Shown: positions 7,515-40,955 of the stretch, in pieces | How the letters are laid out: the number at the start of each line of letters is the position of its first letter | How positions within the stretch are numbered: position 1 is the first letter of the stretch | Assembly (NCBI GenBank): GCA_043732305.1 | Contig: JAYTHU010000031.1 | Location: 4,739-68,738, forward strand | Source: Oligoflexia bacterium | Lineage (GTDB): Bacteria > Bdellovibrionota > Bdellovibrionia > JABDDW01 | DNA length: 64,000 nt | Direction: 5' to 3' | Made by a program: the position numbers and the translations under genes | The notes under the pieces: model-generated | What the model was told of the DNA's origin: nothing | What the model saw: the letters and a program-made list of their open reading frames with translations, nothing else | Database searches by the model: none

Positions 7515-7523
7515 AATTCAACC

Positions 7524-7982: not shown

Positions 7983-8028
7983 GGTGCCAATATCCTATAA
8001 AAATGACGGGAATTAAGAAAGAAAAATA

Positions 8029-19570: not shown

Positions 19571-19749
19571 AAATCTCCACTTTGAAAATAGGTCCATCCG
19601 TATTCTCTCAAGTTTATGTATTACAAGGGTTGGGCCATGGTTTTGGTCCTAGGGAATGACAGGTTGACTATAGGATTGATTGTCAGGAGTGCAGTTCGAA
19701 TAGGCCTTGAGTCGTCAGACAACTGTCTAATTTTTAGCCAAGTCGGTTT

Positions 19750-21591: not shown

Positions 21592-21597
21592 TTTTCC

Positions 21598-24395: not shown

Positions 24396-26248
24396 TCCGT
24401 CCTCAAAATGGCTTCGCTTACAAGCTGATCCACAACTTCACTTATCTTTGCGTCTCGCTCTGGATCAAGATGAACCCCTCTAGAAAGAGCTGTTCTTTCT
24501 ATCACTTTCTTAAGATTTTCCCTCGCTGTAGTTTCAAATTCAGAAATGTTATCTTGCCCAAGGATTTGAACATGGCGCAAACCCACTACCGCAAAAAATA
24601 TACTCGCATTGAATGCCTGTTTTTCGTGACTCATTCCTATCGCATTATAAATACTGTCAGGAATTTGCGCGTATGTGTCCACCCAATTCACAGATTGGTT
24701 CTTGCGAGAAAAAAGAAGCGTCGACAGAGAAAGGTACTGCGCAATGGTGATGCGACGATTTTCCTTGAACAAATGAGTCCAAATTCTCGAGGCAATACGG
24801 CTTGCAGAAATCTGACTCAGATAGGTTGTTTCCATTTCTTTTTTAATTCCCACGAGATAATCAGAAACACCTAAATCAACCAAAGGCTCAAGCAGTCCTC
24901 GAAGTGACTGATTCAATGCGAGGCCCAATTTGTCATTTTTATGATGGGACAAAACATAACCGATGAACTTTGGAATTTTCGATGCGAAAACAGGATCTTC
25001 AAAAAGAAGGTTGAATCCCTGAAAGAGAACTCTTTGATCCGTGTTTTCGAGAAGATTAGTGGCCATTGTGCCGAATAAATGACTAGCCAAAAGTTCATCA
25101 TCTTCACTGTTGGCAGCAAACTTTTCCACTCTAAGCATGGTTTCAGCAACCAAACGTGTATCTAACCACTTCACAGAAAGAAGAGCAGTGAGTTGTAAAA
25201 AATCTGCATTTTCCTGGAGCTTTTCCACTGCATGACCATAAGCTGCAGATGTGAGGGGCAATGATTTTAAAAGATTCCATGACTCTTCTTTTATACCCCA
25301 AATACTTACACTTTTTTGTTCGCGCCTATGCCACTCCATTTTCCATTCGATAGGCTCCACGTCATCTTCTCGCGGCACTAGAAGAGGCTGGAGATCCACG
25401 GGCACTTTCAGTGATTGGGCTTTGATAATCAAACGGTGGCTAAACTCAACCCTGGATTCCCGAGCGTTACTGCCCACTTGATCGGCGGTAATAATTATTT
25501 TTTCTAAAGTCTCACTCATAATCAAAAAATAGGACTCAAGCTTAGCTATCTCTAGCCTTTTGTTATTTAGCGCCGTTATCACGGAACTTTGAGGGAAAGT
25601 AGATGGCAACCAGTCAGATAGATTTTCCAAAAGGAGATCTAAAATTTTAACTTGATCTTGCAGTAACGACTCCACATTTTTGACCGTCGCGAACTCCTGA
25701 TTGAGATTTTCAATAATTGTTTTAAGCTCTTTTGAACAATGGTTGATCGATACCCGACACTCTCTCACTCGAGCGACTTGTTTGAGAAGTTCCTGCTTTT
25801 TTTTCTCGATGTTGAATCGAGCGCGACCGTATTGATCGATCCTTACATCTAAACTATTCAAAAGTTTCTGTTCGCTGTCCACACCAAAGAGAAGCGTTTC
25901 TAATTCTTCTAACTTTTTAGGCTTAGAGTTTGTGTTTTGAGAAACTTGTCTTTGGCTCACTGCTCGTACCATTTCTAAAAGAGGTTCAAAATGATCTTGA
26001 AGCCGAGTTTGAATTTGAAAATACGGACTAGAGAATTTTTCTTTTTCTAATGCAAAAACTAAATCCTTCACTAATTTTTCATAGACTTGTTTCTGGTCCA
26101 CAGGTTGGGATGCCTTGAATTCCAAAACTTTTTCAAGCTCAAGGATACATGGTTGTGCATTGATAAAGGTGGGAGAAGAAGTAACTGCTGAAAAAGCGTT
26201 GCCACCTAGAAAAAAAACGGGAAACACTAAAGATAAAAACACTTTCAT
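24392..26248 (-). CDS. secreted protein, paralogue family member 4 (subgroup B)
   Basis: Signal peptide. FSSPYFQIQ, LEELETLLFG, C-x6-C (ECRVSINHCSKEL), NQEF and WLP blocks shared with 26248-28161 and 30205-32106. Confidence 0.6.
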   Translation of the reverse strand: MKVFLSLVFPVFFLGGNAFSAVTSSPTFINAQPCILELEKVLEFKASQPVDQKQVYEKLVKDLVFALEKEKFSSPYFQIQTRLQDHFEPLLEMVRAVSQRQVSQNTNSKPKKLEELETLLFGVDSEQKLLNSLDVRIDQYGRARFNIEKKKQELLKQVARVRECRVSINHCSKELKTIIENLNQEFATVKNVESLLQDQVKILDLLLENLSDWLPSTFPQSSVITALNNKRLEIAKLESYFLIMSETLEKIIITADQVGSNARESRVEFSHRLIIKAQSLKVPVDLQPLLVPREDDVEPIEWKMEWHRREQKSVSIWGIKEESWNLLKSLPLTSAAYGHAVEKLQENADFLQLTALLSVKWLDTRLVAETMLRVEKFAANSEDDELLASHLFGTMATNLLENTDQRVLFQGFNLLFEDPVFASKIPKFIGYVLSHHKNDKLGLALNQSLRGLLEPLVDLGVSDYLVGIKKEMETTYLSQISASRIASRIWTHLFKENRRITIAQYLSLSTLLFSRKNQSVNWVDTYAQIPDSIYNAIGMSHEKQAFNASIFFAVVGLRHVQILGQDNISEFETTARENLKKVIERTALSRGVHLDPERDAKISEVVDQLVSEAILRTE

Positions 26249-28161
26249 TAATTTAACTGCCCCACCGTTCTATTCAGGAGATTGTCTATGTATTTTTCGA
26301 CTCCCAGCTGATAGGATTGACTGGATCTCTTGTGACCGGGCATATGCTGAAGCACGATTCTCAACAGACGAGCATGCGCACGCTTTCTAAAATTAGGAAT
26401 ATTATCCATGCTCAGAATTTGAATCTTACTCAGTGCTTTTACGGCAAAAAATATTATTGGATTGAGCCTGACGTAACCATCCCCTTGGAATGGCCCATAA
26501 AATTCTTTGGGTAGAACTTTAAGTTCATCGTTGCTCCAACCTCCCGGACAGAGATCCCAGACAGAGGTTGCTCCGTGATTTACCGATACTTCTAAAAGTT
26601 TGAAATAATCTTCTGCAACCAAACGAGTCTTAGGATCGTTCAAATAATCCCACATCAGCTTGACTTCAAGATCTCGCGAGTCAGTGCCTTCTCCCGCAAG
26701 CTCGCCCATCCTCTGCATAAAATTAAAATCAACCATCACCGTGGGTCCCAGCATGAGGGCTTGTGTGATAATCAGGCGGGCTCGATCCGCGGTGCCCACT
26801 GGGTGCAGTTCACCCAGGAAAAGTGGAATCTGCCCGAGGACATCTCCCTGGAAAAGCCCACTGAACCGGCTGTGAATCCAATCATTCTCCATACGGTGAT
26901 TGAGACGTGACATAAGAAAGTCCACGGCAAGTTTTCCTCGAGCCTTAAATATCACGTCTTTGGATTTGAGAAAGCCTTCGATTGCACGAACAATCTGCAG
27001 AAGGTCAGGTGCTCCGCCAATGTTTAAGGAAAATAATTCTATTTTCCTCATGAGACTTTCCGTCTGACCTAATTCATCAGCCAATATTTTAAATTGCCGG
27101 CTGTTTAAGGGAAGCTTCAATAAAACCTGCCACGAAGGGTATTTATCATCCCAAACAGCACTCTCCATGTTGTCTTCGCTAGCGGCTATGTTCGCTGGCT
27201 TGTCGGGTCCCGGTAAAAACTGGTCTAAATTTATATTTATATCCCAATAAGTTGATTTCAGTTCATCCCGCTCTTTCAAGATAAAATTGAGATCAATGGC
27301 CGGTGACTCCGAACCAGCGCGGATGATAGCCCTTTGAATCCCTTCTATTTGGGTTGAGCCTGCGTGGCTTGCGGACTGATCTGCTCCGATCATGATTTTT
27401 TCAATGGCGTCAGCCATCAATGTGAAATAACTCACCGATTGACCGAGCTCTTGAATCTTATTTGAAATAGCTTTCTTGACAGAATCACTTCCCGATTTCA
27501 CAGGCAACCAGTCATTGGTATTCGAGAGGACAAGTTCGAGAATTTTCGTTTCATCTTCCAAAACACTGAGCACGGTTTTTACAATTTTATATTCGGCGTT
27601 CATTTCTGAAAGCAGAACGGTCACATCAGTAGTGCATTTCTTAATGGCAGCACGGCATGCTTTCAATTTGTTCCCGGCATCTACAACCGCTCTTACCCTA
27701 TCGGCTATTTTCTCGCCCGTTGTTTTGAATGAAATCAGCCCCCCCTTCCGCTTAGCACTGAGGGTATTATTTAATTGCTCGAGTAATTTCAACTCCGTGT
27801 TTGTTCCAAAAAGAAGGGTTTCCAATTCTTCCAGAGCCTTGGGCTTTGTCGTCGAACTATTAGAAATTTGTCGGAGACTCACTTCCAGCGCAAGTTCAAT
27901 GATGGGTTTTAGATATTCGCTCAAACTATTTTGAATGACAAAATAACTACTGGAAAAAAAATCACTTTTGAGAGCCGCTTCGAGCTGCTTTTGTAAAATA
28001 GAATATCTAATCTCGATCGACTCACCATTGTTTTTGACGATGCTTTCAAGAGACGCTTTGCATGGGGGCCGGCTGAGCTCGGCACTTTTAGCGCAGGAAA
28101 TCCAAAGGCACCCTGCCAGAAATGCCATTGCCAAAATAAAAGGCTTTTTGTCCCCGCTCAA
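26248..28161 (-). CDS. lipoprotein, paralogue family member 5 (subgroup B)
   Basis: LAGC lipobox. FFSSSYFVIQ, LEELETLLFG, ACRAAIKKCTTDV, NAEY, NDWLP. TAATG stop/start overlap with member 4. Confidence 0.6.
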   Translation of the reverse strand: MSGDKKPFILAMAFLAGCLWISCAKSAELSRPPCKASLESIVKNNGESIEIRYSILQKQLEAALKSDFFSSSYFVIQNSLSEYLKPIIELALEVSLRQISNSSTTKPKALEELETLLFGTNTELKLLEQLNNTLSAKRKGGLISFKTTGEKIADRVRAVVDAGNKLKACRAAIKKCTTDVTVLLSEMNAEYKIVKTVLSVLEDETKILELVLSNTNDWLPVKSGSDSVKKAISNKIQELGQSVSYFTLMADAIEKIMIGADQSASHAGSTQIEGIQRAIIRAGSESPAIDLNFILKERDELKSTYWDININLDQFLPGPDKPANIAASEDNMESAVWDDKYPSWQVLLKLPLNSRQFKILADELGQTESLMRKIELFSLNIGGAPDLLQIVRAIEGFLKSKDVIFKARGKLAVDFLMSRLNHRMENDWIHSRFSGLFQGDVLGQIPLFLGELHPVGTADRARLIITQALMLGPTVMVDFNFMQRMGELAGEGTDSRDLEVKLMWDYLNDPKTRLVAEDYFKLLEVSVNHGATSVWDLCPGGWSNDELKVLPKEFYGPFQGDGYVRLNPIIFFAVKALSKIQILSMDNIPNFRKRAHARLLRIVLQHMPGHKRSSQSYQLGVEKYIDNLLNRTVGQLN

Positions 28162-28178
28162 TTCTTCCCACCCTGATC

Positions 28179-30092
28179 TTATAATTTAGTTTTTGCTATA
28201 TTTTCGAGCTCTGAAGTGCAGTCCGCTCCATCCATGGTTCCGCCCACACTACGACTCACTAAATTTTGAGCTTCAATGGCCGCAGAATTGAGACGGCCCA
28301 TCGCGATAAAACTCTTACTTGCTTCTATTTCCATGCGGGCTTTTTCAGAGATAATAAAGTCGGCCGTTTCCTTGATTGTCTCGGCGCTGAAGTATGCCGT
28401 GGTATTGATCTCAATGATCATGTCATTGGCGCGCGCGACTTCAACTCGCAATTGTTTCAAACCTGCCTCTTGAGTGGCTCGCACCGCTTTGTTTGTACCT
28501 ACGGCCATTTCTAAAGTGGAGTTGGTGTTTTTGATCATTTCCAAGGTGGTAAAAATAGGCATGCCATTTCTCACGTTAGCGATGTCTTCTCTTACAAAAT
28601 AAATAGTGTCTAGCTGTTTGGCCATAGCTTCACCTATGAGTTCCATAGCTGAGGCCTGACTCAAACCCGCATTGAGACGGTTTCTGAGCTTCTGGCCCAC
28701 ATATGAAATCACGGCTTTCTCATCTTCAAAACGTCCATTGAGATGAAATTCTTCAACGACTCTGGCGATTTCATCGTCGACGAGTTTCCCGAGAGCTACT
28801 TTCATTTTCAAATCTTGGAGGTATCCAGACATCTCATGAAGAGTCGTGATGATTTGCACGCCACTTTCCTTCAATGTTTTAGAGTTGCTCAGCAATACAT
28901 TGTCGACACTCGTGATGCCTTGGCGGTGACTCAACAGTGCCAAACGATCTTTCTTAGGTTTAACGGCGGAAGTCAATTTTCGTTTCACGTAGCCTGGATT
29001 AGGAGCTGCCGAAAGTTTTCCATGCCATCGTTCACGTATCGTGGATTTCCCCACTTCATGCCCCATGCTCTGAAGAAGGTAAGACAAGTCCTTGATGTTT
29101 TGAAGAGATTTTAATTGGGTGTCGTTGATAGCAATATATTGTTTCGAGTTGCGATCTAAAATCTTATTGTTATTCAAGAAGCGTGTGGCCTGCTCGGAAG
29201 AAGCACTCAACTCACTTTCTAACGTTTGCATATTTTCTTGGCGGATTTGCGTTCGCCCCTCGGGAGATAATGTTTTTTCAATAAGTTCTAGAGCCAGCTC
29301 CTTAGCTTTTTTAGTGAGAGCGTCTGCGGAAACTCTGCTCATACGAACTTCAAGAGGCTTGGTTTCGCCCTCACCATTTTTATAATCACCAAGCAAGATT
29401 GTTCGAGTTTGATTTCGAGCGTAGAAAATTTCATCCACGCCATCACGTCTGCGAGAAGCGGCGTCTATCTCCTCGATTTCAAAAAGAATGCCGTCTCCGT
29501 TGGACAAAATATCTTTCGCATACTTCAAGAGACTAGCAGCAGGAATTTGCTGAGTGAGTCCTTGCCGAAGCACATCAAAATACATTTTTAAATTTACTAG
29601 AGAATCCGCATTTAATTTTCCCGGAGCAGTGGTCGTCACTAAAGTCACGAGATCTCTTAAACTGGGATCAGATGTCAATTGAGAGATATCAAAGGAACCA
29701 AGAGTCGCCAGAATCTCAAGTCTGATTTGGTTGACGTCAATGACTTTTGAATCTTTGGTTTCTTGAGCCACAATTGTTTGCAGGGCGGTGCTTACTGCAG
29801 GAAGTTTGTCACCAATCACGGCGATGGAAGATATCGCTTCGGGACTAAGTTTGTATTGAGTTTTTCCACTCTTAAATCTTTCTTGCAGCCGTCGAGTGAT
29901 TTCCGCAATCATGCTAGTTTGCACTACCTCAGTTTGCATTGCCTCCAATTGCCCGTGTTTATAGCTTGGCAGCTGAGTTGTAGTCACCTGACCGCCGGCA
30001 AAAGCAAGACTGCTCACCAATAAAAGGCTCAATGATTTTCCAAGAAGTTTGAGAAAAAAATTATTCTTTTGCATACTAGAAATCCCCTCCAT
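28179..30092 (-). CDS. secreted alpha-helical protein, first gene of the operon, not a family member
   Basis: 637-aa ORF with signal peptide (LLLVSSLAFAGGQ). No shared blocks with the paralogue family. No recognised domain. Confidence 0.5.
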   Translation of the reverse strand: MEGISSMQKNNFFLKLLGKSLSLLLVSSLAFAGGQVTTTQLPSYKHGQLEAMQTEVVQTSMIAEITRRLQERFKSGKTQYKLSPEAISSIAVIGDKLPAVSTALQTIVAQETKDSKVIDVNQIRLEILATLGSFDISQLTSDPSLRDLVTLVTTTAPGKLNADSLVNLKMYFDVLRQGLTQQIPAASLLKYAKDILSNGDGILFEIEEIDAASRRRDGVDEIFYARNQTRTILLGDYKNGEGETKPLEVRMSRVSADALTKKAKELALELIEKTLSPEGRTQIRQENMQTLESELSASSEQATRFLNNNKILDRNSKQYIAINDTQLKSLQNIKDLSYLLQSMGHEVGKSTIRERWHGKLSAAPNPGYVKRKLTSAVKPKKDRLALLSHRQGITSVDNVLLSNSKTLKESGVQIITTLHEMSGYLQDLKMKVALGKLVDDEIARVVEEFHLNGRFEDEKAVISYVGQKLRNRLNAGLSQASAMELIGEAMAKQLDTIYFVREDIANVRNGMPIFTTLEMIKNTNSTLEMAVGTNKAVRATQEAGLKQLRVEVARANDMIIEINTTAYFSAETIKETADFIISEKARMEIEASKSFIAMGRLNSAAIEAQNLVSRSVGGTMDGADCTSELENIAKTKL

Positions 30093-30204
30093 AAAAGTAC
30101 TTCATCCATCTTAACGCAATGCGTAAATAAATTTAAATTGTTTCTGCTAACCGCCACACTGCAATTTCTAAGCCCACGGAACGCAACTTGCAGTTGTTAA
30201 TTTT

Positions 30205-32106
30205 ATGACCTTATTTTTTTTAAACACAGGCGGGTTCAATGATCATCGCCGTGGAAAAAGAACTCGACCCTACCCGAAAAGCGGGAATTTTTTTCAGGAG
30301 AAAAAAAGCGGAGCCATTCTATTCGTTTTACTAACTTCGCTATGTTCGTTTCTCGTAACTGGTGCAAGTCAGGCTCAAGAAGTCACCTCATTAACCATCA
30401 GTGATGCCTGTCAGGCTATCTTGAAAACCCTAAAGGCAACGTCCAACCCGCATGAAAAAGACTCCGTCAATTACACTCCTATCAATGATCAGCAAATCGT
30501 GGATGGAGGAAAATCAATATCCAGCGTGCTTGCTGCCGCCCTGAGGGAAGATTTTCTCTCAAGTCCCAAATACATCATGCACGAACATCTCACAGAATTT
30601 TTGGAACCTGCCATGGATTTGGCTAGAGAAGTGAGCGCAAGGCAATTGGTCGGCCAAACCAGAGAAAAACCAAAAAGCATTCTAGAGATAGAAACTCATC
30701 TTTATGGAAATAAAAGTTTAACGGCGAAGATTGAGGAAGCTGAACTGGCTCTCGACAAGCTTCAGAAAAAAAGTATTTTTCGCAAAAAAGCGACAGAGGA
30801 GGTATTTAAAATTGCGAATGAAATTTTATCCTGTCGCACTGCCATTCAATCTTGCAAGCTTGATATCAAAGGGACTCTCATTCAACTGAACCACGAGTAC
30901 CGCCTGTCCCATGCTGTTGAACTTATTTTGACCGATCACTTAAAAATCCTCGAGAATCTTCAAGGACGTCACACCGAAACATCAATTCAGACAGTGATAG
31001 AAATTAAAAAAGCGGAGTTGAATAGACTGCTGGCGATTTTCAAAGCGGTTTCTACGCAGATTGAATCAGTCATTGAAGTCGGACATACCGTGGTGAAAGA
31101 TGCGGACCAGCTTTCATCCGATAGAATTTCGCAACTCGTGATCAATGCCGCCAAGCAAAGTCCTTCCTTAGATTTGACGTATCTAAATCCGGAGACTGAA
31201 GAAGAAGTACAAGAAAAACTTGATCCCGGAGTGATCTTCAAAGATCCCGCGACGGCGGCTCTGCAAAAACTGATTGACCTCACAACTTCCGATATAGGCA
31301 TACGCGAAACCCTATTGAATAAAATTTATCCTCAGATCTACACACCCTCTGGATACTCTTGGATGGTGAGGTACAAAACCCGGAAAGCCCTTGATCGAAT
31401 AAAAAATCAAATTAACATTGGCGGTAAAATCAACATCTACCTTCTTCCATCAGTGATGGAGATTCTTGTGGAATCTTTGGAAACTCTTGATGAGCCAGCA
31501 CTTTTTGCGATCTTGTTAGACCCGGACATTGACCTGCCTGGGTCTCTGCCACAGCTTTTTTCAGCAATCACTCAGCACCCTAAGGCAAAGAAAATACAAA
31601 ACATTTTGCCCAGTTTTTTAGCCGGCAAAACCAGTTGGACAAGGAGCCGTGATTTTAGTGATCAGGTGACGGAGATTTCGAATTACTCCATCGGAGATCG
31701 GTCAAAACTTGATTCACTGGAGATTCTCATACGTAAATCGACGACCATATCACAAGACGAGTTTCTGCTTTTGGCAGCGAAAACTCCTTCTAACGTTCCC
31801 TGGGGCCTCCCAACCGATGTTTACCTTAAAGGAAAACTCACCGCCTATGGTTTCGCGAAGCGAGATCTGATGGCAATACACATCAAGATAGAATTTAATA
31901 TCATTTTTGATGCTCTCGAAAAAGTCTCAATCAGAGATATTGAGTCAAAACAAAATTGGGAAAGGAAGGTCATTGGAATACTCACCACCCGGTTAAGGGC
32001 AGCCTATCCAGATGACAATTTTCCTAAAGAGGTGACGTTGGTTACGGCTTTGGACAATTTGCTCTTGAGAGCCATGCAATATTCCAGCAAAAGGTGTTAC
32101 GAGTGA
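30205..32106 (+). CDS. secreted protein, paralogue family member 6 (subgroup B-like), divergently transcribed
   Basis: DACQAILKTL, FLSSPKYIMHE, LEIETHLYG, SCRTAIQSCKLDI, NHEY, SLDLTYL. The real start is probably downstream of the annotated Met, at the signal peptide ...AILFVLLTSLCSFLVTGASQAQ. Confidence 0.55.
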   Translation: MTLFFLNTGGFNDHRRGKRTRPYPKSGNFFQEKKSGAILFVLLTSLCSFLVTGASQAQEVTSLTISDACQAILKTLKATSNPHEKDSVNYTPINDQQIVDGGKSISSVLAAALREDFLSSPKYIMHEHLTEFLEPAMDLAREVSARQLVGQTREKPKSILEIETHLYGNKSLTAKIEEAELALDKLQKKSIFRKKATEEVFKIANEILSCRTAIQSCKLDIKGTLIQLNHEYRLSHAVELILTDHLKILENLQGRHTETSIQTVIEIKKAELNRLLAIFKAVSTQIESVIEVGHTVVKDADQLSSDRISQLVINAAKQSPSLDLTYLNPETEEEVQEKLDPGVIFKDPATAALQKLIDLTTSDIGIRETLLNKIYPQIYTPSGYSWMVRYKTRKALDRIKNQINIGGKINIYLLPSVMEILVESLETLDEPALFAILLDPDIDLPGSLPQLFSAITQHPKAKKIQNILPSFLAGKTSWTRSRDFSDQVTEISNYSIGDRSKLDSLEILIRKSTTISQDEFLLLAAKTPSNVPWGLPTDVYLKGKLTAYGFAKRDLMAIHIKIEFNIIFDALEKVSIRDIESKQNWERKVIGILTTRLRAAYPDDNFPKEVTLVTALDNLLLRAMQYSSKRCYE

Positions 32107-35045
32107 AACCGAAATTTTCTGCTTCCACATTTCTAATTTTCGATTTTTTAATCTTCGCAACTCTTTTAAGCTTCGGCTTATGTTCAAGCTTAGGCTTTGG
32201 CGCCGAGCTTTTACGTTTCCCTTTCCAAGACGGAAGAAAAATTCTGGTGACTCAGGGTGATTCGGGCGTTCACGTTTCTTATGTCAGAAAAATAGATTCT
32301 TCGAATACAATCAGCAGCGCAGGCAAAGAAGTGGAAATAGAATTTCTCACTTTGCCAGAGCTAACGGGTTTTTCAGTCTTTAATAATTCCGACGTTTCAA
32401 ATCACATTCCGAAAGAAATCAAAGCTTATAAAGTTGTTCAATCCAAAAAGTCGAACTTTGAGTTTAAAAACTGGTTGATCCTATCGGATAAAACCCATGG
32501 CTATTTTATACGGCAACATAGTTTTTCTGGAAATAGCAAAATCCCTCTGGTGGTTTTTAAATTCAAAATGCCAAGCGACGTCAAAATGATTTCATCAAGT
32601 TATGGGATGGGACCGGAAGGATCGCGATTTCTATATTTTATTTCTGTCGATGGAAAAACAGCCAAAACTATGGTTTTTAGTCCAGAAGAGGGAGACCAAC
32701 CACTCAAATTAATTCCTCAATTTGTAGATCTTGGAAATATTCAGGAGCCGGTTTTCCAAATTGTTGGCGATGAAATCGTTTGGAAAGAACGATATCTGAA
32801 AAAATATAATTTCGACCTTCCTGAAATCAAAGACATTAAAACAGGGAATTCAAAAAACAATCCCATGGGTGATATTGAGAATTCTCAGGCGAATTTGCAA
32901 AACACCGCCCGCATGGCTCATGAAGCTGCCACGGAATTATCCAAACCTGCGAACCAAAGAATGAAATCCGCAGAACGGACCCAGAATTTCAATCATTCTC
33001 TTGCCACACCTGATGCTGATGTTGAATACAAAGGCCTTCATTACAAAATTGAAGAGTCACTTGAAGGAGTCGAAATTGTCAGGCTCAAAGATCTTAAAAG
33101 CCTCACTGTAAGCAAAGGAAGCTATAACTCAACTCATATTTTAGATGGCGGAATACTGAAATTTTCGGATATCTCTCGAGAAATATCTCTAGATCACTTT
33201 GATGCCGAATGTGCCTTCATGCCCACTGGAAACAATCCCCAAGAAGTAAAGTTCATGGAAGGAACTTATGAAAACTTTAGAAAGACCGGATCAATAAATC
33301 TCGTTCTTCCTGATTCGCGAAAAGAACTGGTCAGACAGGCGGTAAAACGCATGCTCGGTGAAAAGAAAAACAGCCTGCTTCTGACTGAAGGTTTTGGAGA
33401 TCGAAAGTTCATTGTTCAAAATATAGTTCAGGCCTTGCCACCCACCTGGCGCGTGCTTACGCTTTCACCGGGACCACTCTCTAAAGACATCAACTACTCG
33501 GGAAAAATTCAGGAAAACGTTTCCCATATTTTGGAAGCGGCAAAGACGACGCCTCTGGTTTTGGTGGCCGAAGACTTTCATATCTACAAAGGTTTGGGAT
33601 CTACTGGTGGCAATCAAACTGATGTGCTTGAACTGATCCGTGATGCGGTCTTGAGTGGCCAACTGCGGTTGATTGCACTCTCCGGAGAGGAATTTAACGA
33701 GCGTGTTCATGATCCTGCTTGGGACCGAGCCCTTTTTAAAATTCCCCTTACTGATTTGAGTCAGGTAGAAGTTTTTGAATTCTTAAAAAATCTTTGGGCG
33801 GTAGATGGAAAAGGACTTCCACTTCCGAGCGCCAAAACTCTAAATAAAATAATCGATGTTGCGGGGAAATTCAATGTGACTGAAGAAGACCCCGCCCGCT
33901 CCGCCGATTTCATGGCTGCATACATTTCAGAATTGAGCGAGACAACGTCTCCATCCATCGACGTGAACGATGAAGTTTCTCTTTTGAAATCAGCTAAAGA
34001 TTTCTATCGACTAGATCCTTCACTGATTGATCCAAAAATTTTATTCTCTAAAGTTCAGAACTTTATTCCTAAGGTTCGCGATTACGGTCTCATGGGGCAT
34101 GATCATGTGATTGCAGCGGCAAAAAAAATGATTGCAAACTCCCTTTCTGGCGCATCACTTGATCCCGGGCCTGGATTTATTATGTACGTGGATGGTCCAC
34201 CCGGCGTTGGAAAAACCGAAATGGCTAAGAGTTTTGCTTCGGCCATGGATTGGAACATCAAAAGAATTGTCATGCACCAGGCAATGACCTCAGACACTCT
34301 GCTTGAAAATCTTTATCGCGCACTGAAAAAAAATCCACACTCTCTGATTTTTCTCGACGAGATAGAAAAAGCATCTCCCGACACTCTCAAGGGACTTCTT
34401 CAAACCATGGACAATGAGTACTTCAACGTGGATATGGAGATTGGCGACAAACAAAAACGCACGGTGCGCGCGTCTACTAAACATGCGAAGTTTATGCTCG
34501 CTGGAAATGTACTGGGCGAAGCAATCTCCCATTGGTGGCATGATCATCCGGAATATATTAACTCTCTCACACCACCTCATATGCAATTCATAAAGGACAT
34601 GGGCGGCGAAGAACGTTTGCGGCAACTATTGATTCAAGAAGGTCTTCCGTCCCCGCTCATTGATAGGGCCTACGTGACTTATGCTTTTCCGCCGACACGA
34701 GAACAGATAAAAGGTTTCCTCACTTTTAAGATCAACCTGATGATAAAAATATTTGAAAAAAACAATGATCGAAAATTAGTCTTCACTGGTCTTGAAAAAT
34801 ACATTGAAGATGTGACTGATTTTGCTATTCGGGAAAAGCTTGGACCAAGATCCATTTTGCGCGCCACCACGGGCTCTAATGGAGATTTCGCAAGCATTCT
34901 GGCAAACCTTGCAAGCACGTACGCTGCGGCACCGGGGAGTCATGACGGGCCGGTGAAGCTTCGATTCGATGAAAAAAGAACGGATCCCACCCACGACTGC
35001 CAAAATATTTTGGCAGAAATGGAAAATGAGATCCGAGAAAACTAA
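32094..35045 (+). CDS. Clp/Hsp100-like double AAA+ protein with degenerate D1, intact D2 and novel membrane-anchored N-terminal region
   Basis: D1-like segment aligns with ClpB but has GFGDRK for Walker A GVGKT and AEDFH for Walker B DELH. D2 has GPPGVGKTEMAK, LIFLDEIEKA and a sensor-1-like MLAGN (AAA_2 type). The N-terminal 40 aa are hydrophobic and a ~400-aa unique domain follows. 13-nt overlap with the preceding paralogue. Confidence 0.65.
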   Translation: MLRVKPKFSASTFLIFDFLIFATLLSFGLCSSLGFGAELLRFPFQDGRKILVTQGDSGVHVSYVRKIDSSNTISSAGKEVEIEFLTLPELTGFSVFNNSDVSNHIPKEIKAYKVVQSKKSNFEFKNWLILSDKTHGYFIRQHSFSGNSKIPLVVFKFKMPSDVKMISSSYGMGPEGSRFLYFISVDGKTAKTMVFSPEEGDQPLKLIPQFVDLGNIQEPVFQIVGDEIVWKERYLKKYNFDLPEIKDIKTGNSKNNPMGDIENSQANLQNTARMAHEAATELSKPANQRMKSAERTQNFNHSLATPDADVEYKGLHYKIEESLEGVEIVRLKDLKSLTVSKGSYNSTHILDGGILKFSDISREISLDHFDAECAFMPTGNNPQEVKFMEGTYENFRKTGSINLVLPDSRKELVRQAVKRMLGEKKNSLLLTEGFGDRKFIVQNIVQALPPTWRVLTLSPGPLSKDINYSGKIQENVSHILEAAKTTPLVLVAEDFHIYKGLGSTGGNQTDVLELIRDAVLSGQLRLIALSGEEFNERVHDPAWDRALFKIPLTDLSQVEVFEFLKNLWAVDGKGLPLPSAKTLNKIIDVAGKFNVTEEDPARSADFMAAYISELSETTSPSIDVNDEVSLLKSAKDFYRLDPSLIDPKILFSKVQNFIPKVRDYGLMGHDHVIAAAKKMIANSLSGASLDPGPGFIMYVDGPPGVGKTEMAKSFASAMDWNIKRIVMHQAMTSDTLLENLYRALKKNPHSLIFLDEIEKASPDTLKGLLQTMDNEYFNVDMEIGDKQKRTVRASTKHAKFMLAGNVLGEAISHWWHDHPEYINSLTPPHMQFIKDMGGEERLRQLLIQEGLPSPLIDRAYVTYAFPPTREQIKGFLTFKINLMIKIFEKNNDRKLVFTGLEKYIEDVTDFAIREKLGPRSILRATTGSNGDFASILANLASTYAAAPGSHDGPVKLRFDEKRTDPTHDCQNILAEMENEIREN

Positions 35046-35053
35046 ACCTTAAA

Positions 35054-37192
35054 TTATATCTTATAGAACTTCTGGCCACCACGAGCCATCTGCAAGAGTG
35101 CTTCAGACGGTTTGAATCTCGGAGCCTTATTCTTAACAGACAATTCTTCGAGCTCATCCACAATGGCGTTTACACCAAGGCTATCGGCCCATTTAAGTAG
35201 TCCACCTCTGAAGGGCGGAAAACCTGTGCCCATTATCATGCCCAAGTCGACATCGTCAGGGCGTTCGACGATTTTTTCCTGCATACACATGGCGGCTTCA
35301 TTGATCATGGGAAACAAAACACGTTTCACCATTTCATCTGGATTGAACTTTCCGGGCGTTTTGGTAACTCCGGTGATTTCATAAATTTTAGGATCCACGT
35401 GCAACATTTTTCCAGTCGCATCGTAAAGATAAAATCCTGAACCATTTTTCTTGCCGAATTTTTTTGCATCGACAACTTTGTGCATAACAGGTGAAGGCTC
35501 CGCGCGAACTCCGAAAGCTTTAAATAAAATTTTCGCCACTTTTTCCGCAACATCGATCCCCACTTCGTCGATCAAATGCATTGGACCCATGGGCATTCCA
35601 AAATTCAATAAAGCTTTATCAATATTTTCAATGCTCTCGCCTTCACTGAATACGTAACAAGCTTCGTTCAAATAGGGCATGAGCAAACGATTGACTAAAA
35701 ATCCGGGACATTCCTTAACCACTATGGGAGTTTTTCCCATGCGTTTGGAAAGTGCAAAAATAGTTGCAGCTGCTTTGTCGCTGGTTTTTTCTCCTCTGAT
35801 CACTTCGATCAAAGGCATTTTTGCGACGGGATTGAAAAAATGCATACCCACAAAATTTTCTGGCTTCGGCAAAGCGGATGAAATTTCATTGATGCTCAAA
35901 CTCGAAGTGTTACTGGCAATAATGACATCGTCTTTGCATTGACCTGCGACTTCGGCTAAAACTTTTTTCTTCACATTTATATCTTCAACGATCGCTTCAA
36001 TCACTACGTCCAAAGTTTTGAACCCAGCAAAGTCTACTCCACCGGAAATGTGATCCATCTTTCTTTGATATTCAAACTTGTTGATTTTCTTTCGTTTGAC
36101 ATCTTTTGAAAATAAATCCGCCGCGGTTTTTATTCCTTTGGCGATAGCATCAAGATTCACATCTTTCACTCGGACCATCATGTTTTTGTCCGCAGCGAGT
36201 TGTGCAATCCCGCCCCCCATTGTGCCCGCTCCAAGAACGCCGACGTGTTCAATGGGAGAAAGATCAATTTTTTTATTTCCCGGGAGACCAGTTTGTTTTT
36301 TCACAGCCTCAGTCATGAAATAAAGAGAGATTAAATTTTTACTGACAACAGTTGCCGCCATTTCACCGAATCCATCGGACTCGATTTTCATTCCTTTGAC
36401 GAAATTTCCGCCGTAGGTTTTTTTAATGACTTCAAGTGCTTTCAAAGGCGACGGATAATGTCCACCCGTTTTAGCCATGAGAGCTTGTTTAGCTTTTGAG
36501 AAAATCACAGCTTTCGCAGGACCTTCTAAAATAACATTTACCAAACCCTTGGGTTTGAAAAACTTTCGGCGCTTGCCTTTTACAACAGCGTCTTTGGTGA
36601 ATTTCACCACCTGCTCATGCAGAAGTTCTTTAGGCACGCACAGATCTATAAGGCCGATTTTATATGCTTTGCTTCCATTCACAGATTTACCGGCAAGAAT
36701 GATATCTAAACTTTGCTGAAGTCCAATCAAACGGGGCAACCTCTGAGTTCCACCGAACCCTGGAAAAACTCCCAAATTAACTTCTGGTAAACCAATTTTG
36801 GTTGATGGGTCATCGGTCGCGATCCTATAATCACAAGCTAATATCAGTTCGCATCCGCCCCCCATGCACGCTCCGTGAACGGCCGCAATGGTAGGCATGG
36901 GAAGAGCTTCAAGCAAAGTAAAAATACTTTGGCCAAAGGCTGCCGCTTCGGCGCCTTCCTCTTTTGTTTTAAGTGCTTTAATTTCTTCTATGTCAGCACC
37001 GGCAATAAAAATATTTGGCTTTTTAGAAATGAAAACAACAGCTCTATATTTTGATTGCGCAAGTTCTTCGATCACCTGCAACAGGCGTAAAAGAACACCA
37101 CCGGTAAGTTTATTTATTTTTTCACCGGGAAGATCAAATTCAACCCATGCGGTATCACCATCAGCCTTGATAGTGATCGCCTCATTCATAGG
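35054..37192 (-). CDS. fadJ: fatty-acid oxidation complex alpha subunit (enoyl-CoA hydratase / 3-hydroxyacyl-CoA dehydrogenase)
   Basis: N-terminal crotonase domain, central NAD Rossmann (GVLGAGTMGGGIAQ) and 3HCDH C-terminal domains. Start set at the internal Met (MNEAITIK) so it no longer overlaps the upstream thiolase. Confidence 0.8.
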   Translation of the reverse strand, partial: PMNEAITIKADGDTAWVEFDLPGEKINKLTGGVLLRLLQVIEELAQSKYRAVVFISKKPNIFIAGADIEEIKALKTKEEGAEAAAFGQSIFTLLEALPMPTIAAVHGACMGGGCELILACDYRIATDDPSTKIGLPEVNLGVFPGFGGTQRLPRLIGLQQSLDIILAGKSVNGSKAYKIGLIDLCVPKELLHEQVVKFTKDAVVKGKRRKFFKPKGLVNVILEGPAKAVIFSKAKQALMAKTGGHYPSPLKALEVIKKTYGGNFVKGMKIESDGFGEMAATVVSKNLISLYFMTEAVKKQTGLPGNKKIDLSPIEHVGVLGAGTMGGGIAQLAADKNMMVRVKDVNLDAIAKGIKTAADLFSKDVKRKKINKFEYQRKMDHISGGVDFAGFKTLDVVIEAIVEDINVKKKVLAEVAGQCKDDVIIASNTSSLSINEISSALPKPENFVGMHFFNPVAKMPLIEVIRGEKTSDKAAATIFALSKRMGKTPIVVKECPGFLVNRLLMPYLNEACYVFSEGESIENIDKALLNFGMPMGPMHLIDEVGIDVAEKVAKILFKAFGVRAEPSPVMHKVVDAKKFGKKNGSGFYLYDATGKMLHVDPKIYEITGVTKTPGKFNPDEMVKRVLFPMINEAAMCMQEKIVERPDDVDLGMIMGTGFPPFRGGLLKWADSLGVNAIVDELEELSVKNKAPRFKPSEALLQMARGGQKFYKI

Positions 37193-37214
37193 CTTGATCG
37201 TGGTTTTAAATTTA

Positions 37215-38558
37215 TTAATTTTCTCGTTCGACAATGACAGCTCCACCTTGTCCTCCTCCGATGCATAATGTTGCGAGTCCAAATTGGACTGATCTTCTCT
37301 GCATTTCTTTTAATAGTGTCAAAATCAATCGAGAGCCGGTCGCTCCGACTGGATGACCAAGCGCAATCGCTCCGCCATTCACGTTCAAAATAGAATCGTC
37401 GAATTCTCCGAGCGCTTCATTCACACCCATGCGTTGCTCATAAAATTTAGCCGACGCCATAGCTCTGCGACACGCAATGACTTGCGCAGCGAAAGCTTCG
37501 TTGAGTTCAATGAGACCAATATCTTTCAATTTTAATCCAGCACGTTTCAATGCGAGTGGAGTCGCGAGTGCGGGACCAAGTCCCATGCGCTCGGGTTCCA
37601 AACCAGCAAAACCGTAAGAACGCATAACGCCCAGTGGTTTGTAGCCCATGCTCTCAGCTTTTGCTCGAGACATCATGAGCATCATGACGGCTCCGTCAGT
37701 GATGGGACAAGAGTTTCCAACAGTGATTGTTCCAAACTTTTTATCAAAAAAAGGTTTTAGTTTTGCGAGTTTTTCCATGCTGATATCTTTGCGTGGACCG
37801 ACATCTTCTTTAAGATATTTGTCAAACTTAGGAGGCAAGAAAACAGCAGTCATCTCTTCTTGAAGTCTAGCTGCTGCAGCGAGCGCTTTTTTATGCGAAT
37901 TAAAAGCGTACTCATCTTGCTCTGTGCGAGAGATCTCAAATTCTTTGGCTAAAATTTCTGCGGTCTGGCCCATGTTGATTCCACAAACAGGATCAGTCAG
38001 GCCTTGCACAAGAGCAATATTTGGTTTGTTGGGAGTTTCTGCCATTGGACCGGTAGTCATGATGTCTTTGATCTGTGCAAAATCAGATTTGATCAAATTC
38101 ATTAATGCGCCGATTCTCTGACCGCCACTCTTGGCAGAACCCAAAGCTTCAAGCGCTCTGACTTGAGTCTGACTCATCATGATGGGCATTTGTGACATGC
38201 TCTCAGTGCCGCCTGCAATAACGGTATCAACCATCCCGCTTCGAATTTTATCAAACGCTTGAGAGACTGACTCCATGGCGGAGGCACAATTGCGATGCAC
38301 ACTGTAAGCAGAAACTTCTTTGGGAATTCCTGCATTGAGCGCAATCACGCGAGAAATATTCACGGCATCTGCTGGGCTGCCAGTATTTCCGATGATCACT
38401 TCTTGAATCGTTTTCACATCAAGATTAGTTTTATTTATTAATTCTTTTAAAGCCTGACGACCAAGCTCCACAGGATGCACATTCTTAAAGTTTGCTCCCG
38501 CTTTGACAAATGGCGTTCGTACGCCTTCAACAATGACAACATCATTCGGTGATTTCAT
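37215..38558 (-). CDS. fadI: acetyl-CoA C-acyltransferase (3-ketoacyl-CoA thiolase)
   Basis: Thiolase active-site regions (NRQCASAM-like NCASAMES, GGIGQG-like CIGGGQGGA at the C-terminus). Immediately upstream of the fadJ-like gene. Confidence 0.8.
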   Translation of the reverse strand: MKSPNDVVIVEGVRTPFVKAGANFKNVHPVELGRQALKELINKTNLDVKTIQEVIIGNTGSPADAVNISRVIALNAGIPKEVSAYSVHRNCASAMESVSQAFDKIRSGMVDTVIAGGTESMSQMPIMMSQTQVRALEALGSAKSGGQRIGALMNLIKSDFAQIKDIMTTGPMAETPNKPNIALVQGLTDPVCGINMGQTAEILAKEFEISRTEQDEYAFNSHKKALAAAARLQEEMTAVFLPPKFDKYLKEDVGPRKDISMEKLAKLKPFFDKKFGTITVGNSCPITDGAVMMLMMSRAKAESMGYKPLGVMRSYGFAGLEPERMGLGPALATPLALKRAGLKLKDIGLIELNEAFAAQVIACRRAMASAKFYEQRMGVNEALGEFDDSILNVNGGAIALGHPVGATGSRLILTLLKEMQRRSVQFGLATLCIGGGQGGAVIVEREN

Positions 38559-38675: not shown

Positions 38676-40955
38676 ATGCCCTTTGAAAAAGACGCGCTTG
38701 AGTATCATAGTTCTGGTCGCAAGGGAAAAATCGAAGTCGTTTCCACCAAGCCCTGCTTCACTTCGCGAGATCTTTCGCTCGCTTATACACCTGGCGTTGC
38801 TGAGCCGTGTAAAGCCATCGCTAAGGACGAAGAAAAAGTTTACGAATACACAACCAAAGGTAATTTGGTCGCAGTCATTTCGAACGGAACAGCCGTTTTA
38901 GGTCTAGGCAATATTGGCCCCTATGCCGGGAAACCCGTCATGGAAGGTAAAGGTATTTTATTTAAACGATTCGCGGATATCGATGTTTTCGATATTGAGT
39001 TAGACACTCAAGACCCCGTTAAATTTGTCGAGGCAGTTAGACTTCTTCAACCCACCTTTGGTGGAATCAATCTTGAAGACATCAAAGCTCCTGAATGTTT
39101 TTACATCGAAGAAGAACTCAAGAAAATCATGAAGATCCCCGTTTTTCATGATGATCAACATGGAACAGCCATTATCAGTGGCGCCGCATTCATCAATGCG
39201 CTAGAAATCACCGGAAAAAAAGCTGACGAAGTCAAAGTTGTTTTCAATGGTGGCGGTGCCGCAGCTATTGCGTGCGCTAAACTTTTTGTAAGTCTTGGCG
39301 TTCAGTACAAAAATCTTTTGATGTGTGACACCAAAGGAGTGATTTACAAGGGCCGCACTGAAGGCATGAACAAATATAAAGAAATCTTTGCCGCGGAAAC
39401 AGCCAGACGCACTCTGACTGACGCGCTCATTGGTGCAGACGTTTTTGTAGGTGTCAGTGTCAAAGGCGCTGTCACCAAAGACATGCTCATGGGCATGGCA
39501 AAAGGTCCTATTGTTTTTGCAATGGCCAATCCCGACCCCGAAATCTCGTACGAAGACGCTATTGCTGCTAGACCCGATGTTTTGATGGCTACTGGCCGCA
39601 GTGATTATCCTAATCAAGTGAATAACGTTTTGGGTTTCCCGTTTATTTTCCGCGGGGCACTCGATGTCCGCGCGACTACCATAAATGAGGAAATGAAAAT
39701 TGCAGCAGTGCACGCACTTGCTCAATTGGCGCGCGAAGATGTTCCCGATTCCGTTTCACGCGCCTACGGCGGGAAGAAATTTAAATTTGGTCCTGAATAT
39801 ATTATTCCGAAACCTTTTGATCCCCGTGTTTTACTCTGGGTTGCTCCCGCAGTCGCAGAAGCTGCCGGTAAATCCGGAGTCGCCAAAAACCCCATCAAAA
39901 ATATGGCGGAATATAAAGAACAGCTCGAAAAGCTTTTAGGGACATCTCGCGGAATCATTCGAAACGTCATCAACAAAGTCAAACACACCTCTAGCAACTC
40001 TTCATTGCCTTCGATTGTTTTCCCCGAAGGCTACAACGATAAAGTTTTAAGAGCATGCAACGCTATTTTAGAAGAAGGAATGGCACGCCCCATTATATTG
40101 GGCAATGAAACCAACGTCCGCAATCGAATCAAAGAACTAGATTTAAAAATACTCAATAATGTTCCGATCATTCAGCCCATCAAATCGCCAAAGTTTGCAG
40201 TTTATGCTCGAAAATTTCATGACATGCGAAAACGCAAAGGTCTCACACTCGCTGAAAGCGAACGTTTGATCTATGACCCAAATTATTTTGGCGCCATGAT
40301 GGTTCACATGGGCGATGCCGATGGATTCATCAATGGAGTCACGCAAAGTTATCCTGAAGGTGTCAGACCCATTCTGCGTGTGCTTGGTGTGAACCCCGGC
40401 GAAGTCGCATCTGGCCTTTACATGATGGTCATGAAAAATCGCCTGCTCTTTTTTGCCGACACCACAGTAAACATTGATCCGACAGCAGAAGAATTAGCCA
40501 TCATTGCTATTCACAGTGCAGACACTGCTCGTTTTTTTGACGTCGAGCCTCGCATTGCCATGCTGAGCTTTTCTAACTTCGGCAGCATGAAAGCAGCAAC
40601 GACTGTAAAAATGCAAAGGGCTGCAGAAATCGTCAGACAGAAACGTCCAGATCTTATTGTCGATGGAGAAATGCAGGCCGATGCGGCCGTTGATCCAAGA
40701 ATAATTAAAGAGCAATTTCCTTTCTGCGAAATCAAAGATGGCGCGAACGTTTTGATTTTCCCCGATTTAAATTCTGGGAACATTTCATACAAACTCATGC
40801 AGCGCTTAGGCGGAGCGGAAGCTATCGGTCCCATTTTGATGGGCGTGACCAAACCTGCCAACACCATGCAACGTGCAGTAGATGTGAATGACATAGTAAA
40901 TATGGCAGCCATCACGGCCATTCAATGTCAAAGTTTGAGAAATCCAAACGCATGA
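38676..40955 (+). CDS. maeB: NADP-dependent malic enzyme with C-terminal phosphotransacetylase-like domain
   Basis: Malic-enzyme N-domain motifs ([21 protein letters not shown]) plus the ~330-aa PTA-like C-terminal domain. 759 aa. Confidence 0.85.

Follow-up and report, generated by a model that had tools for sequence, protein, structure and literature searches.

A predicted exported Clp/Hsp100-type ATPase with a degenerate first AAA+ module, encoded in a variable gene island of an Oligoflexia bacterium

The window analyzed here is a stretch of 64,000 nucleotides from an Oligoflexia bacterium of the Bdellovibrionota (assembly GCA_043732305.1, contig JAYTHU010000031.1). Near its middle lies a gene for a large protein, referred to below as the ATPase, that resembles the Clp/Hsp100 machines and combines an inactivated first AAA+ module (D1), a catalytically complete second module (D2) and a predicted export signal at its N-terminus. 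The features of the gene and its product are listed here, with positions counted from the first nucleotide of the window.

32091-32096, + strand: Shine-Dalgarno-like AAGGTG, 6 nucleotides upstream of GTG 32103
32103-35045, + strand: ATPase gene, 980 amino acids plus stop (open reading frame, start of NCBI protein P0001, ClpA/ClpB homology, fold match)
32103-32201, + strand: predicted N-terminal export signal, residues 1-33 (MKPK, hydrophobic stretch, SSLGFG)
32205-32807, + strand: beta-rich N-terminal domain, beta-propeller-like, residues 35-235
32214-32234, + strand: mature-N-terminus motif RFPFQDG, residues 38-44 (regular-expression match FPFQDG at 39-44), first strand of the N-terminal domain
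32808-33008, + strand: probably disordered linker, residues 236-302, with a predicted local distance difference test score (pLDDT) below 50 in both AlphaFold2 models
33015-33224, + strand: small beta-domain (residues 305-354, pLDDT above 85) and family signature
33312-34067, + strand: D1, degenerate pseudo-ATPase module, residues 404-655 (alignments with ClpB/ClpA and the family)
33384-33407, + strand: D1 P-loop TEGFGDRK, residues 428-435
33489-33506, + strand: D1 pore-loop position INYSGK, with Y465
33555-33575, + strand: D1 Walker B LVLVAED, residues 485-491
33717-33737, + strand: D1 former Arg-finger site, RA at 542-543
34080-34937, + strand: D2, catalytically complete AAA+ module, residues 660-945 (Pfam AAA_2, invariant columns, alignment)
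34194-34217, + strand: D2 Walker A GPPGVGKT, residues 698-705
34269-34295, + strand: D2 beta2-alpha2 loop without GYVG (alignment, AlphaFold2 secondary structure)
34344-34373, + strand: D2 Walker B LIFLDEIEKA, residues 748-757
34416-34475, + strand: D2 extended hairpin ahead of sensor-1, residues 772-791, longer than in Clp
34998-35042, + strand: C-terminal Cys motif C966-QNIL and terminal helix 962-979 (AlphaFold2)

The listing of open reading frames (ORFs) places the gene at 32094-35045 (+), with a GTG start, a product of 983 amino acids and a 5' end that overlaps the 633-residue ORF at 30205-32106. The deposited NCBI protein (P0001) has 980 amino acids and begins MKPKF, which corresponds to GTG 32103. 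Judging from the surrounding sequence, GTG 32103 is the better start and the in-frame GTG 32094 a less likely one, and we have moved the start given in a preliminary description of the window 9 nucleotides downstream. This codon overlaps the TGA stop of the upstream gene as GTGA (32103-32106), an arrangement typical of translational coupling, and is followed by an uninterrupted frame of 980 codons. Residue numbers throughout are those of the 980-residue protein; the 983-residue version, whose numbering is offset by +3, was used for the Pfam, NCBIfam and PDB phmmer searches. The preliminary description had allowed that a mis-called start might remove the hydrophobic N-terminus from the protein. 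However, in-frame start codons ahead of the conserved motif (residues 39-44) are limited to 32094 and 32103, and with either one the hydrophobic segment has to be translated.

When compared with all PDB chains by phmmer, residues ~408-775 of the ATPase align in one piece with ClpA 191-584 (E 5e-15), and D1 alone aligns with Thermus thermophilus ClpB 174-342 (E 3e-12). As sequence matches these are far beyond chance. Pfam recognizes D2 only (AAA_2, with 46 bits where the cut-off is 27, and also AAA and AAA_5); at E ≤ 1 it reports no Clp_N, lid domain or Torsin family for the ATPase, and no Clp_N, middle domain (M-domain) or other domain for residues 1-400. Scores against the NCBIfam equivalogs fall far under their cut-offs, at 66 versus 993 bits for ClpA, 35 versus 1232 for ClpB and 33 versus 885 for ClpV. 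An AlphaFold2 model built from a 45-sequence family alignment has a mean pLDDT of 80.5, rising above 90 for most of residues 305-930, and a Foldseek comparison of this model with the PDB returned protomers of ClpC, ClpA and ClpB as the best matches (E ~1e-28, ~600 aligned columns). No M-domain was found: relative to ClpA, which does not have one, there is no large insertion, and the model contains no long coiled coil at 554-660. The alignment of D1 and D2 together with ClpA and the Foldseek matches to ClpC, ClpA and ClpB thus bear out the original proposal of a Clp/Hsp100-type protein with two tandem AAA+ modules. As far as alignments and predicted fold can say, the ATPase is clearly a Clp/Hsp100 derivative and a branch of that AAA+ family (class I, ClpA-like, no M-domain).

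The two modules have fared very differently. In D1, the Clp P-loop GEPGVGKT has become TEGFGDRK with one residue deleted, the Walker B pattern hhhhDE (h, hydrophobic) reads LVLVAED, and the Arg-finger pair RR is replaced by RA (ALERRF in ClpB, AWDRALF here). Walker A, Walker B and both Arg fingers have therefore been lost, in agreement with the earlier view that D1 is inactivated. D2 retains not only the GPPGVGKT and LDEIEKA motifs from which it had been called intact, but also sensor-1 (N802), the Arg finger (R855, in PLIDR) and sensor-2 (R916, in GPRSILR). What D2 has lost is its canonical pore loop 1. The ClpA/ClpB segment GAPPGYVGYEEGG is deleted, and in the AlphaFold2 model only six residues (HQAMTS) separate strand beta2 from helix alpha2, the interval in which pore loops sit (PMC4999309). 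The preliminary description had suggested looking for a pore-loop Tyr in each ring; one is kept at the pore-loop position of the dead D1 (Y465, within the NYSG of INYSGK), while in D2 it has gone with the GYVG loop. The IGF/IGL loop that follows sensor-1 of D2 and docks ClpP is likewise absent from the ATPase and from the clade of relatives with a dead D1.

To place these features in a family context we used an exhaustive HMMER scan of 1.84 billion cluster representatives, which yielded 2247 matches with an E value of 1e-3 or less; 295 of these lie at or below 1e-10 and 34 at or below 1e-30. Apart from the protein itself, the top match reaches an E value of 1e-75 at 31% identity, and homology covers residues ~340-920. 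A word-indexed search of 5.8 billion proteins, run with the protein and with the family profile, returned nothing from the family except the self-hit because canonical Clp proteins (ClpB) saturated the candidate list. The ATPase is a singleton at 90% identity, which reflects an under-sampled lineage since even its housekeeping neighbors are singletons at that level. In the alignment of 45 family sequences, whose members are 18-25% identical to the ATPase, the invariant columns are G467, G499, P597, G665, G698, G701, K704, D752, E753 and N802, and R855, R916 and C966 are at least 90% conserved. The family also shares the motif DGIL..R.IDL..F..E..F.P just ahead of D1 and PRTW after the P-loop helix. 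The spacing between Walker A and Walker B of D2 is 50-55 residues in the family versus 68 in three canonical Clp proteins, and the deletion of the D2 pore loop is therefore family-wide.

Decay of D1 is confined to part of the family. A short D1 P-loop is common to at least 17 representatives (the ATPase, P0016-P0024, P0029-P0034, P0037 and P0038), and each of the D1-dead representatives heads a separate 50%-identity cluster. In their P-loop, GxxGD- or GxxTD-, the Asp (D433 in the ATPase) is invariant and no Lys is conserved, and they also lack the Walker B DE, the RR fingers and, mostly, the aromatic residue of the pore loop. More distant members keep GxGK(T/S), DE, RR and a (K/S)(Y/F)xG pore loop in D1. 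The family is thus a natural series from intact to dead D1. A sequencing error, which the preliminary description had named as a possible source of the degenerate P-loop, does not account for D1, because at least 17 divergent relatives share the degenerate P-loop, Walker B and Arg fingers. At the same time, the strict retention of the catalytic residues of D2 alongside the decay of the dispensable motifs of D1 argues that D2 hydrolyzes ATP.

Members with an intact D1 differ from the D1-dead clade in a further respect. After sensor-1 of D2, where ClpA/ClpC/ClpX have their ClpP-docking loop, 34 of 80 intact-D1 members (which include P0036, P0042, P0049 and P0123) carry an (I/L/M/V)G(F/Y) tripeptide (for example KPIGF or RSIGF), compared with ~10% expected by chance. 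No gene for ClpP or another peptidase was found beside relatives of this type at two loci (L090 and L092). At a third locus (L087), positions 1-2495 (-) encode a 1419-residue protein with a signal peptide, AAA_2 and Peptidase_M41 (FtsH-type metalloprotease), and the C-termini of P0047 and P0055 contain the motifs HELEGH and HELRGH. These sequences suggest that the lineage also contains exported fusions of AAA+ modules with proteases.

The ~400 residues ahead of D1 had been described as having no recognizable N-domain or ClpB middle domain. The absence of Clp_N and of an M-domain has held up, but the region does not lack recognizable structure: it contains the two beta-domains predicted by AlphaFold2 and a conserved signature. 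Residues 35-235 are beta-rich in both models and reach a pLDDT of ~80-90 in a model dedicated to this part. The signature DGIL..R.I.L..F..E..F.P (348-374) starts within the small beta-domain, is conserved family-wide and precedes D1; R359, L363 and E369 hardly vary across the 45 aligned sequences.

The case for export comes mainly from the family. Residues ~9-30 are the sole strongly hydrophobic stretch of the ATPase (mean Kyte-Doolittle hydropathy 2.1 over 19 amino acids). Taking as a signal-peptide-like segment any 12-residue window that starts in the first 45 residues and averages 2.0 or more on the Kyte-Doolittle scale, we detected one in 105 of the best 149 representatives compared with 1 of 47 canonical Clp controls (1/14 and 0/33), and the representatives that failed were mostly fragments or true Clp proteins. 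Among 114 members with a hydrophobic segment, the median uncharged stretch is 14 amino acids long, the mean net charge is +1.5 ahead of the segment and -0.6 in the 15 residues behind it, and the N-terminal flank is the more positive one in 89 members and the less positive one in 8. Close relatives have AXA-type cleavage sites (VLA|AN, ASA|SS, VSA|QS, VFA|AN). The positive-inside bias, the short hydrophobic regions (h-regions) and the AXA sites argue for cleavable Sec signal peptides rather than reversed anchors. The Tat and lipoprotein routes were considered and rejected, with a twin-Arg motif in 5 and a lipobox in 1 of the 114. Right after the signal peptide, 27 of 150 members carry [FY]x[FY]x[ND]G, a motif found at a frequency of 0.3% in shuffled or internal sequence. 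We count as indirect support for export that Cys makes up 0.26% of residues in the family versus 0.52% in Clp controls, and that every other gene of the island described below encodes a signal peptide.

In the ATPase itself, the N-terminal region preceding the hydrophobic stretch (n-region) is MKPK with a charge of +2, the cleavage site is a non-canonical SSLG/FG, and there is no lipobox or Tat motif. Whether the segment is a cleaved signal peptide or an N-in signal-anchor, the body of the protein is predicted to lie outside the cytoplasm. Family-wide signal peptides and charge bias thus agree with the original reading of the N-terminus as an export-type segment, and Sec-type export of the ATPase and its family is what these hydropathy and charge heuristics predict. 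That reading had been judged incompatible with an ATPase unless the topology were inverted. The family argues otherwise, with 89 members against 8 following the positive-inside rule, the median uncharged stretch of 14 amino acids and the AXA sites of relatives.

A second conserved element lies at the other end of the protein. In the AlphaFold2 model the terminal helix (962-979) follows a low-confidence linker and C966 stands at its start. A Cys occurs within the last 30 residues in 123 of 150 representatives, compared with ~7-8% expected from composition and 3 of 33 Clp controls; a median of 8 residues follow it, and in 70 of the 150 it is the sole Cys of the mature protein. The motif follows the consensus C-x-x-[L/I/A]-[L/F/Y], with hydrophobic residues at +3 in 70% and at +4 in 88% of cases (background 32%). 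The strict C-terminal pattern is confined to the ATPase gene when the 43 window ORFs of 200 amino acids or more are compared. The same motif recurs in other proteins of the ATPase gene clusters. The product of 28179-30092 has one near its C-terminus (C625, its one Cys, in GADCTSEL), and at all loci examined the arrayed secreted proteins described below carry one at the mature N-terminus, where it is often their lone Cys. These read DRCASILETL, TRCVSVLEAL, LRCGLLLENL and DACQAILKT in the window, APRCAEVL, APFCSNVL and AELCSQVL in L082, SNQCAEAF and SIECQDVF in L084, and QNCELVLGA, QTCNMVLNS, SNCEMILGT and SSCSMVFNA in L093. In L084, positions 6336-7736 encode a protein whose DnaJ domain (42 bits), with HPS instead of HPD, comes directly after a signal peptide. 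This protein ends VRCEFIF and lies two genes upstream of a family ATPase that ends VRCELLFN. To our knowledge, an exported J-like protein is unusual in bacteria. Candidate roles for the motif are docking through intermolecular disulfide or helix pairing, or a shared signal for sorting or processing.

The ATPase gene is the last in a ~15-kb island (19750-35045) between a lipoprotein gene (18740-19597) and FadB (35054-37282). The other features of the island are:

19750-28161, - strand: five mutually paralogous secreted proteins of 463-637 amino acids (BLASTP paralogy, Cys positions)
28179-30092, - strand: exported ~630-residue partner (637 amino acids) of a TelA-like family, divergent and one gene from the ATPase gene
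30205-32106, + strand: sixth secreted paralog, translationally coupled to the ATPase gene, with signal peptide and Cys69 motif DACQAILKT

In a relative (L085, GCA_016715815.1) the backbone is conserved, comprising a 367-residue gene, the lipoprotein, FadB, thiolase, MaeB, HflX and FtsX, but the gap between the lipoprotein gene and FadB is ~2.9 kb and holds unrelated genes. The 15-kb stretch of the window is therefore a variable island. At the same site, L087 (GCA_034439615.1) carries the intact-D1 member P0123 together with the 1419-residue AAA_2/Peptidase_M41 protein. The MaeB neighbor (38676-40955) is 79-83% identical to proteins labeled 'MAG: Oligoflexia bacterium' (MAG, metagenome-assembled genome), placing the organism in the Bdellovibrionota, and P0123 occurs in such a genome. 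The predicted lipoprotein at 18740-19597 (-) has 285 amino acids, an LLFTAC lipobox and a Cys-rich C-terminus (ACAFFRCQ), and is 41% identical to its counterpart in L085. A terminator-like hairpin with a T-run at 34978-34992 (-) sits within the 3'-terminal part of the ATPase gene and ~60 nucleotides downstream of the convergent FadB stop (35054), and may be the FadB terminator. Promoter and terminator scans of the window gave results not above shuffled expectation, and Rfam and tRNA scans of it were empty.

The ~630-residue partner recurs at other loci. In L081, L082, L084, L089 and L093 its homologs immediately precede the ATPase gene, and they match the window copy with BLASTP E values of 4e-7 to 2e-21 and one another with values of up to 1e-136. 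Including the window, homology ties the partner to the ATPase in six loci. At the P0030 locus a 628-residue gene without a Pfam match occupies the partner position and is linked to it by gene size alone. The partner was not found in three intact-D1 loci (L087, L090 and L092). Since every D1-dead locus examined has it and these three lack it, the partner tracks the D1-dead clade in what is a small sample. The L093 partner (6977-8902) matches Pfam TelA over its C-terminal ~280 residues (49.7 bits versus a cut-off of 30), and the window partner matches the L093 partner with an E value of 2e-21 over ~500 amino acids. No relatives of the window partner or of the window's secreted paralogs were found in Pfam, PADLOC, PHROGs or the PDB, and metagenome scans with the partner alignments gave no match. 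We considered a defense system or phage element and rejected it: PADLOC and PHROGs produced generic AAA matches for the ATPase and none for the partner or paralogs.

Arrays of three to five tandem secreted proteins of ~500-580 amino acids flank the ATPase gene in L082, L084 and L093. In the window, each protein of the array has a signal peptide followed by a lone Cys-x-x-hydrophobic-Leu motif, and a CxxxxxxC pair. The sixth paralog (30205-32106) also has the conserved CxxxxxxC pair, is related to the six secreted proteins encoded upstream of it with BLASTP E values of 1e-8 to 8e-28, and has a weak BLAST link to an array protein of L093 (12116-13849, E 5e-5). Homology of the window paralogs to the L082 and L084 arrays is not supported, hhalign giving a probability of 34% that covers only the signal peptide and Cys region. 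In the sixth paralog, the listed ATG leaves ~35-45 residues ahead of the signal peptide (30205-30345, KKSGAILFVLLTSLCSFLVTGASQAQ), and translation of the gene probably begins at a later codon. Another component, ~830-990 amino acids long and without a Pfam match, is encoded in L082 (8550-11045), L084 (1-1053), L089 (4813-7776) and the P0030 locus (969 amino acids), and was not found in the window by tblastn. In L089 and the P0030 locus an ABC1-kinase gene lies beside the ATPase gene.

Comparison with known systems helps to define what kind of machine this could be. With ClpA and ClpC, the ATPase shares the tandem AAA+ modules, the best structural matches, the lack of an M-domain and a D2 of the HCLR type. 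It differs from them in having a Sec signal instead of Clp_N, a dead D1, no GYVG in D2, no IGF/IGL loop, a conserved Cys near the C-terminus and a dedicated TelA-like partner. D1 aligns with ClpB 174-342, and neither ClpB/Hsp104 nor the ATPase has a ClpP-docking loop, but the ATPase lacks the M-domain, N-domain and D2 pore loop, its D1 is dead and it carries an export signal. For the partner, the known family to compare is TelA (PF05816, toxic anion resistance protein): the C-terminal ~280 residues of the L093 partner score above the gathering threshold, and the window partner is a homolog of that protein; the partners differ from TelA in their length of ~630 amino acids, signal peptide and extra N-terminal half. 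The molecular function of TelA is not known to us.

Two eukaryotic systems offer organizational parallels for an extracytoplasmic location. HSP101 (ClpB2) of Plasmodium is a Clp/Hsp100 protein with a signal peptide that works outside the producer's cytoplasm as part of PTEX, has partners without known homologs (PTEX150, 993 amino acids), handles cargo bearing a short N-terminal motif after the signal peptide, and uses its C-terminal domain as a docking site (PMC7355975). The system described here offers parallels in its predicted exported ATPase, its conserved partner, the protein of ~830-990 amino acids that recurs at related loci, and the arrays of exported proteins that bear an N-terminal motif. 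However, HSP101 has two active nucleotide-binding domains, Tyr pore loops and an M-domain and threads its cargo, whereas the ATPase has one active module, and no pore-forming membrane component has been identified here. The resemblance to PTEX is best regarded as organizational, not as demonstrated homology of the systems. Torsin is a signal-sequence AAA+ protein of the endoplasmic reticulum lumen, related to Clp D2, that has no pore-loop motif and is thought not to thread; it pairs with LAP1/LULL1, degenerate AAA+-like proteins without Walker motifs, and has a functionally important conserved Cys (PMC4999309). The ATPase likewise would place a Clp-D2-type module without a pore loop outside the cytoplasm and adds a degenerate AAA+ module. 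Torsin is a single module that receives its Arg finger from LAP1/LULL1, whereas in the ATPase D2 has its own (R855) and the degenerate module is fused to it as D1. In addition, the conserved Cys of the ATPase is in the C-terminal tail helix rather than in sensor-2, and there is no Pfam Torsin match at E ≤ 1. Because its only active module lacks a pore loop, the ATPase may be a remodeling or release factor, as has been argued for Torsins (PMC4999309).

Taken together, we favor, with a probability of roughly 0.55, the reading that this is a real, translated Clp/Hsp100 member that is exported by Sec and acts as a non-threading remodeling ATPase outside the producer's cytoplasm. In it, D1 would be a structural pseudo-ATPase and D2, with all residues for hydrolysis, the sole motor of a putative hexamer. 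Nucleotide cycling by D2 would remodel, assemble or release partner proteins rather than unfold them processively; threading in the manner of ClpA/ClpB is unlikely because the GYVG pore loop of D2 has been lost throughout the family and the ClpP-docking loop is absent from the clade. Candidate binding elements are the N-terminal beta-domains and the flexible C-terminal helix with its Cys. The ATPase would work with the co-inherited, exported, TelA-like ~630-residue partner and probably also with the neighboring arrays of secreted paralogs that bear the same Cys-x-x-hydrophobic-hydrophobic motif. We infer that it would most likely act, and obtain its ATP, at or within a prey or host cell, or else in a compartment leaky to the ATP of such a cell. 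The grounds for such a site are that there is no known supply of periplasmic ATP and that the organism belongs to the Bdellovibrionota, an affiliation that makes the site plausible, if short of proof. The exported J-like protein of L084 hints at a compartment containing Hsp70, although its HPD is degenerate. A more specific version of this reading, which we consider doubtful, has the ATPase and its TelA-like partner dock secreted clients or effectors through disulfide or helix pairing of the ATPase's C-terminal Cys helix with the same motif at their mature N-termini, and assemble, activate or deliver them with ATP of the prey or host.

Several observations weigh against the favored reading. 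We know of no source of ATP outside the cytoplasm, and Sec passes unfolded chains, hence nucleotide cannot travel along with the protein. The h-region of the ATPase is atypically long (~29 uncharged positions and an Asp), is not followed by a clean AXA site, and separates flanks that differ little in charge (+2 before, +1 after). The window partner is itself under the Pfam threshold for TelA and has no direct match. Finally, the ATPase and the arrays are linked by adjacency and a shared short motif, and arrays from different loci are not demonstrably homologous.

Of the alternatives, the one that survives best, although we think it unlikely, is that the protein is exported but remains in the producer's own periplasm or on its surface, where it would use trace periplasmic or extracellular ATP or serve as an ATP-independent scaffold or holdase. 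Sec-type signal peptides are as expected for such a location, and loss of the pore loop fits a binding role without a motor. There is also a precedent in the DNA ligase Lig E, a periplasm-targeted, ATP-dependent enzyme, and extracellular ATP has been measured (preprint, 10.64898/2026.03.22.713542). Yet the invariance of the D2 Walker B Glu, sensor-1, Arg finger and sensor-2, where the D1 counterparts have decayed, argues for hydrolysis. In general, AAA+ motors require ATP far above the levels reported outside cells.

An inverted topology, in which an uncleaved anchor with its N-terminus outside tethers a cytoplasmic Clp-like ATPase to the inner membrane, strikes us as improbable even though normal access to ATP would directly remove the paradox. 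With ~29 uncharged positions and one Asp, the hydrophobic stretch of the ATPase has sufficient length to span a membrane as a helix, no canonical AXA site follows it, and the next 15 residues have a net charge of +1. Its own n-region, at +2, points the other way, as does the family, whose charge bias is the opposite of what such an anchor needs (89 versus 8 members, means of +1.5 and -0.6) and most of whose members have short h-regions (median 14 amino acids) followed by AXA-like sites. Cys is moreover scarce, with a single conserved one, and all proteins co-clustered with the ATPase bear signal peptides.

Far less credible, and already largely refuted, is a true start further downstream (for example GTG 32247 or a later ATG) that would leave the hydrophobic stretch untranslated and turn the protein into an ordinary cytoplasmic Clp paralog. 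In-frame GTG, TTG and ATG codons do exist downstream, among them at residues 52, 80 and 87 (983-residue numbering; 52 is 49 in the 980-residue protein), but GTG 32103 has a Shine-Dalgarno sequence at optimal spacing and the GTGA stop-start overlap, residues 39-44 fit the mature-N-terminus motif of the family, the N-terminal region aligns with relatives, and signal peptides open 105 of 149 independent gene calls in those relatives. The idea that the gene is an incipient pseudogene, a ClpA/ClpB paralog that has lost its function and is decaying within a horizontally acquired island, could appeal to the loss of the D1 motifs and D2 pore loop, to singleton status at 90% identity and to a variable island missing from a close relative, but is largely refuted by conservation and merits next to no credence given the unbroken 980-codon frame, the full set of D2 catalytic residues, an architecture that dozens of representatives keep at 20-32% identity, together with the synteny to the partner gene, and housekeeping neighbors that are likewise singletons.

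In the library of papers searched we found no description of exported, secreted or periplasmic bacterial AAA+ or Clp proteins, and a comparative-genomics paper on lineage-specific families of the Bdellovibrionota makes no mention of AAA, Clp or ATPase; the exported Clp-like family is apparently previously undescribed. In the textbook picture, the bacterial periplasm and exterior are without ATP, and envelope chaperones and proteases are ATP-independent. Here, a large conserved Clp-type family (295 representative clusters at E ≤ 1e-10) combines predicted Sec signals with an intact catalytic module. The family offers a Clp D2 motor without a pore loop, its exported TelA-like partner may supply a first functional handle on TelA, and a new short Cys motif is common to the ATPases and the secreted proteins encoded with them. 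If export is true, it would mean ATP-dependent protein remodeling outside the organism's own cytoplasm, or AAA+ machines that are injected or secreted into other cells. If the docking version is true as well, the system would in its organization be a prokaryotic counterpart of PTEX or Torsin-LAP1 and an exception to ATP-independent extracytoplasmic proteostasis.

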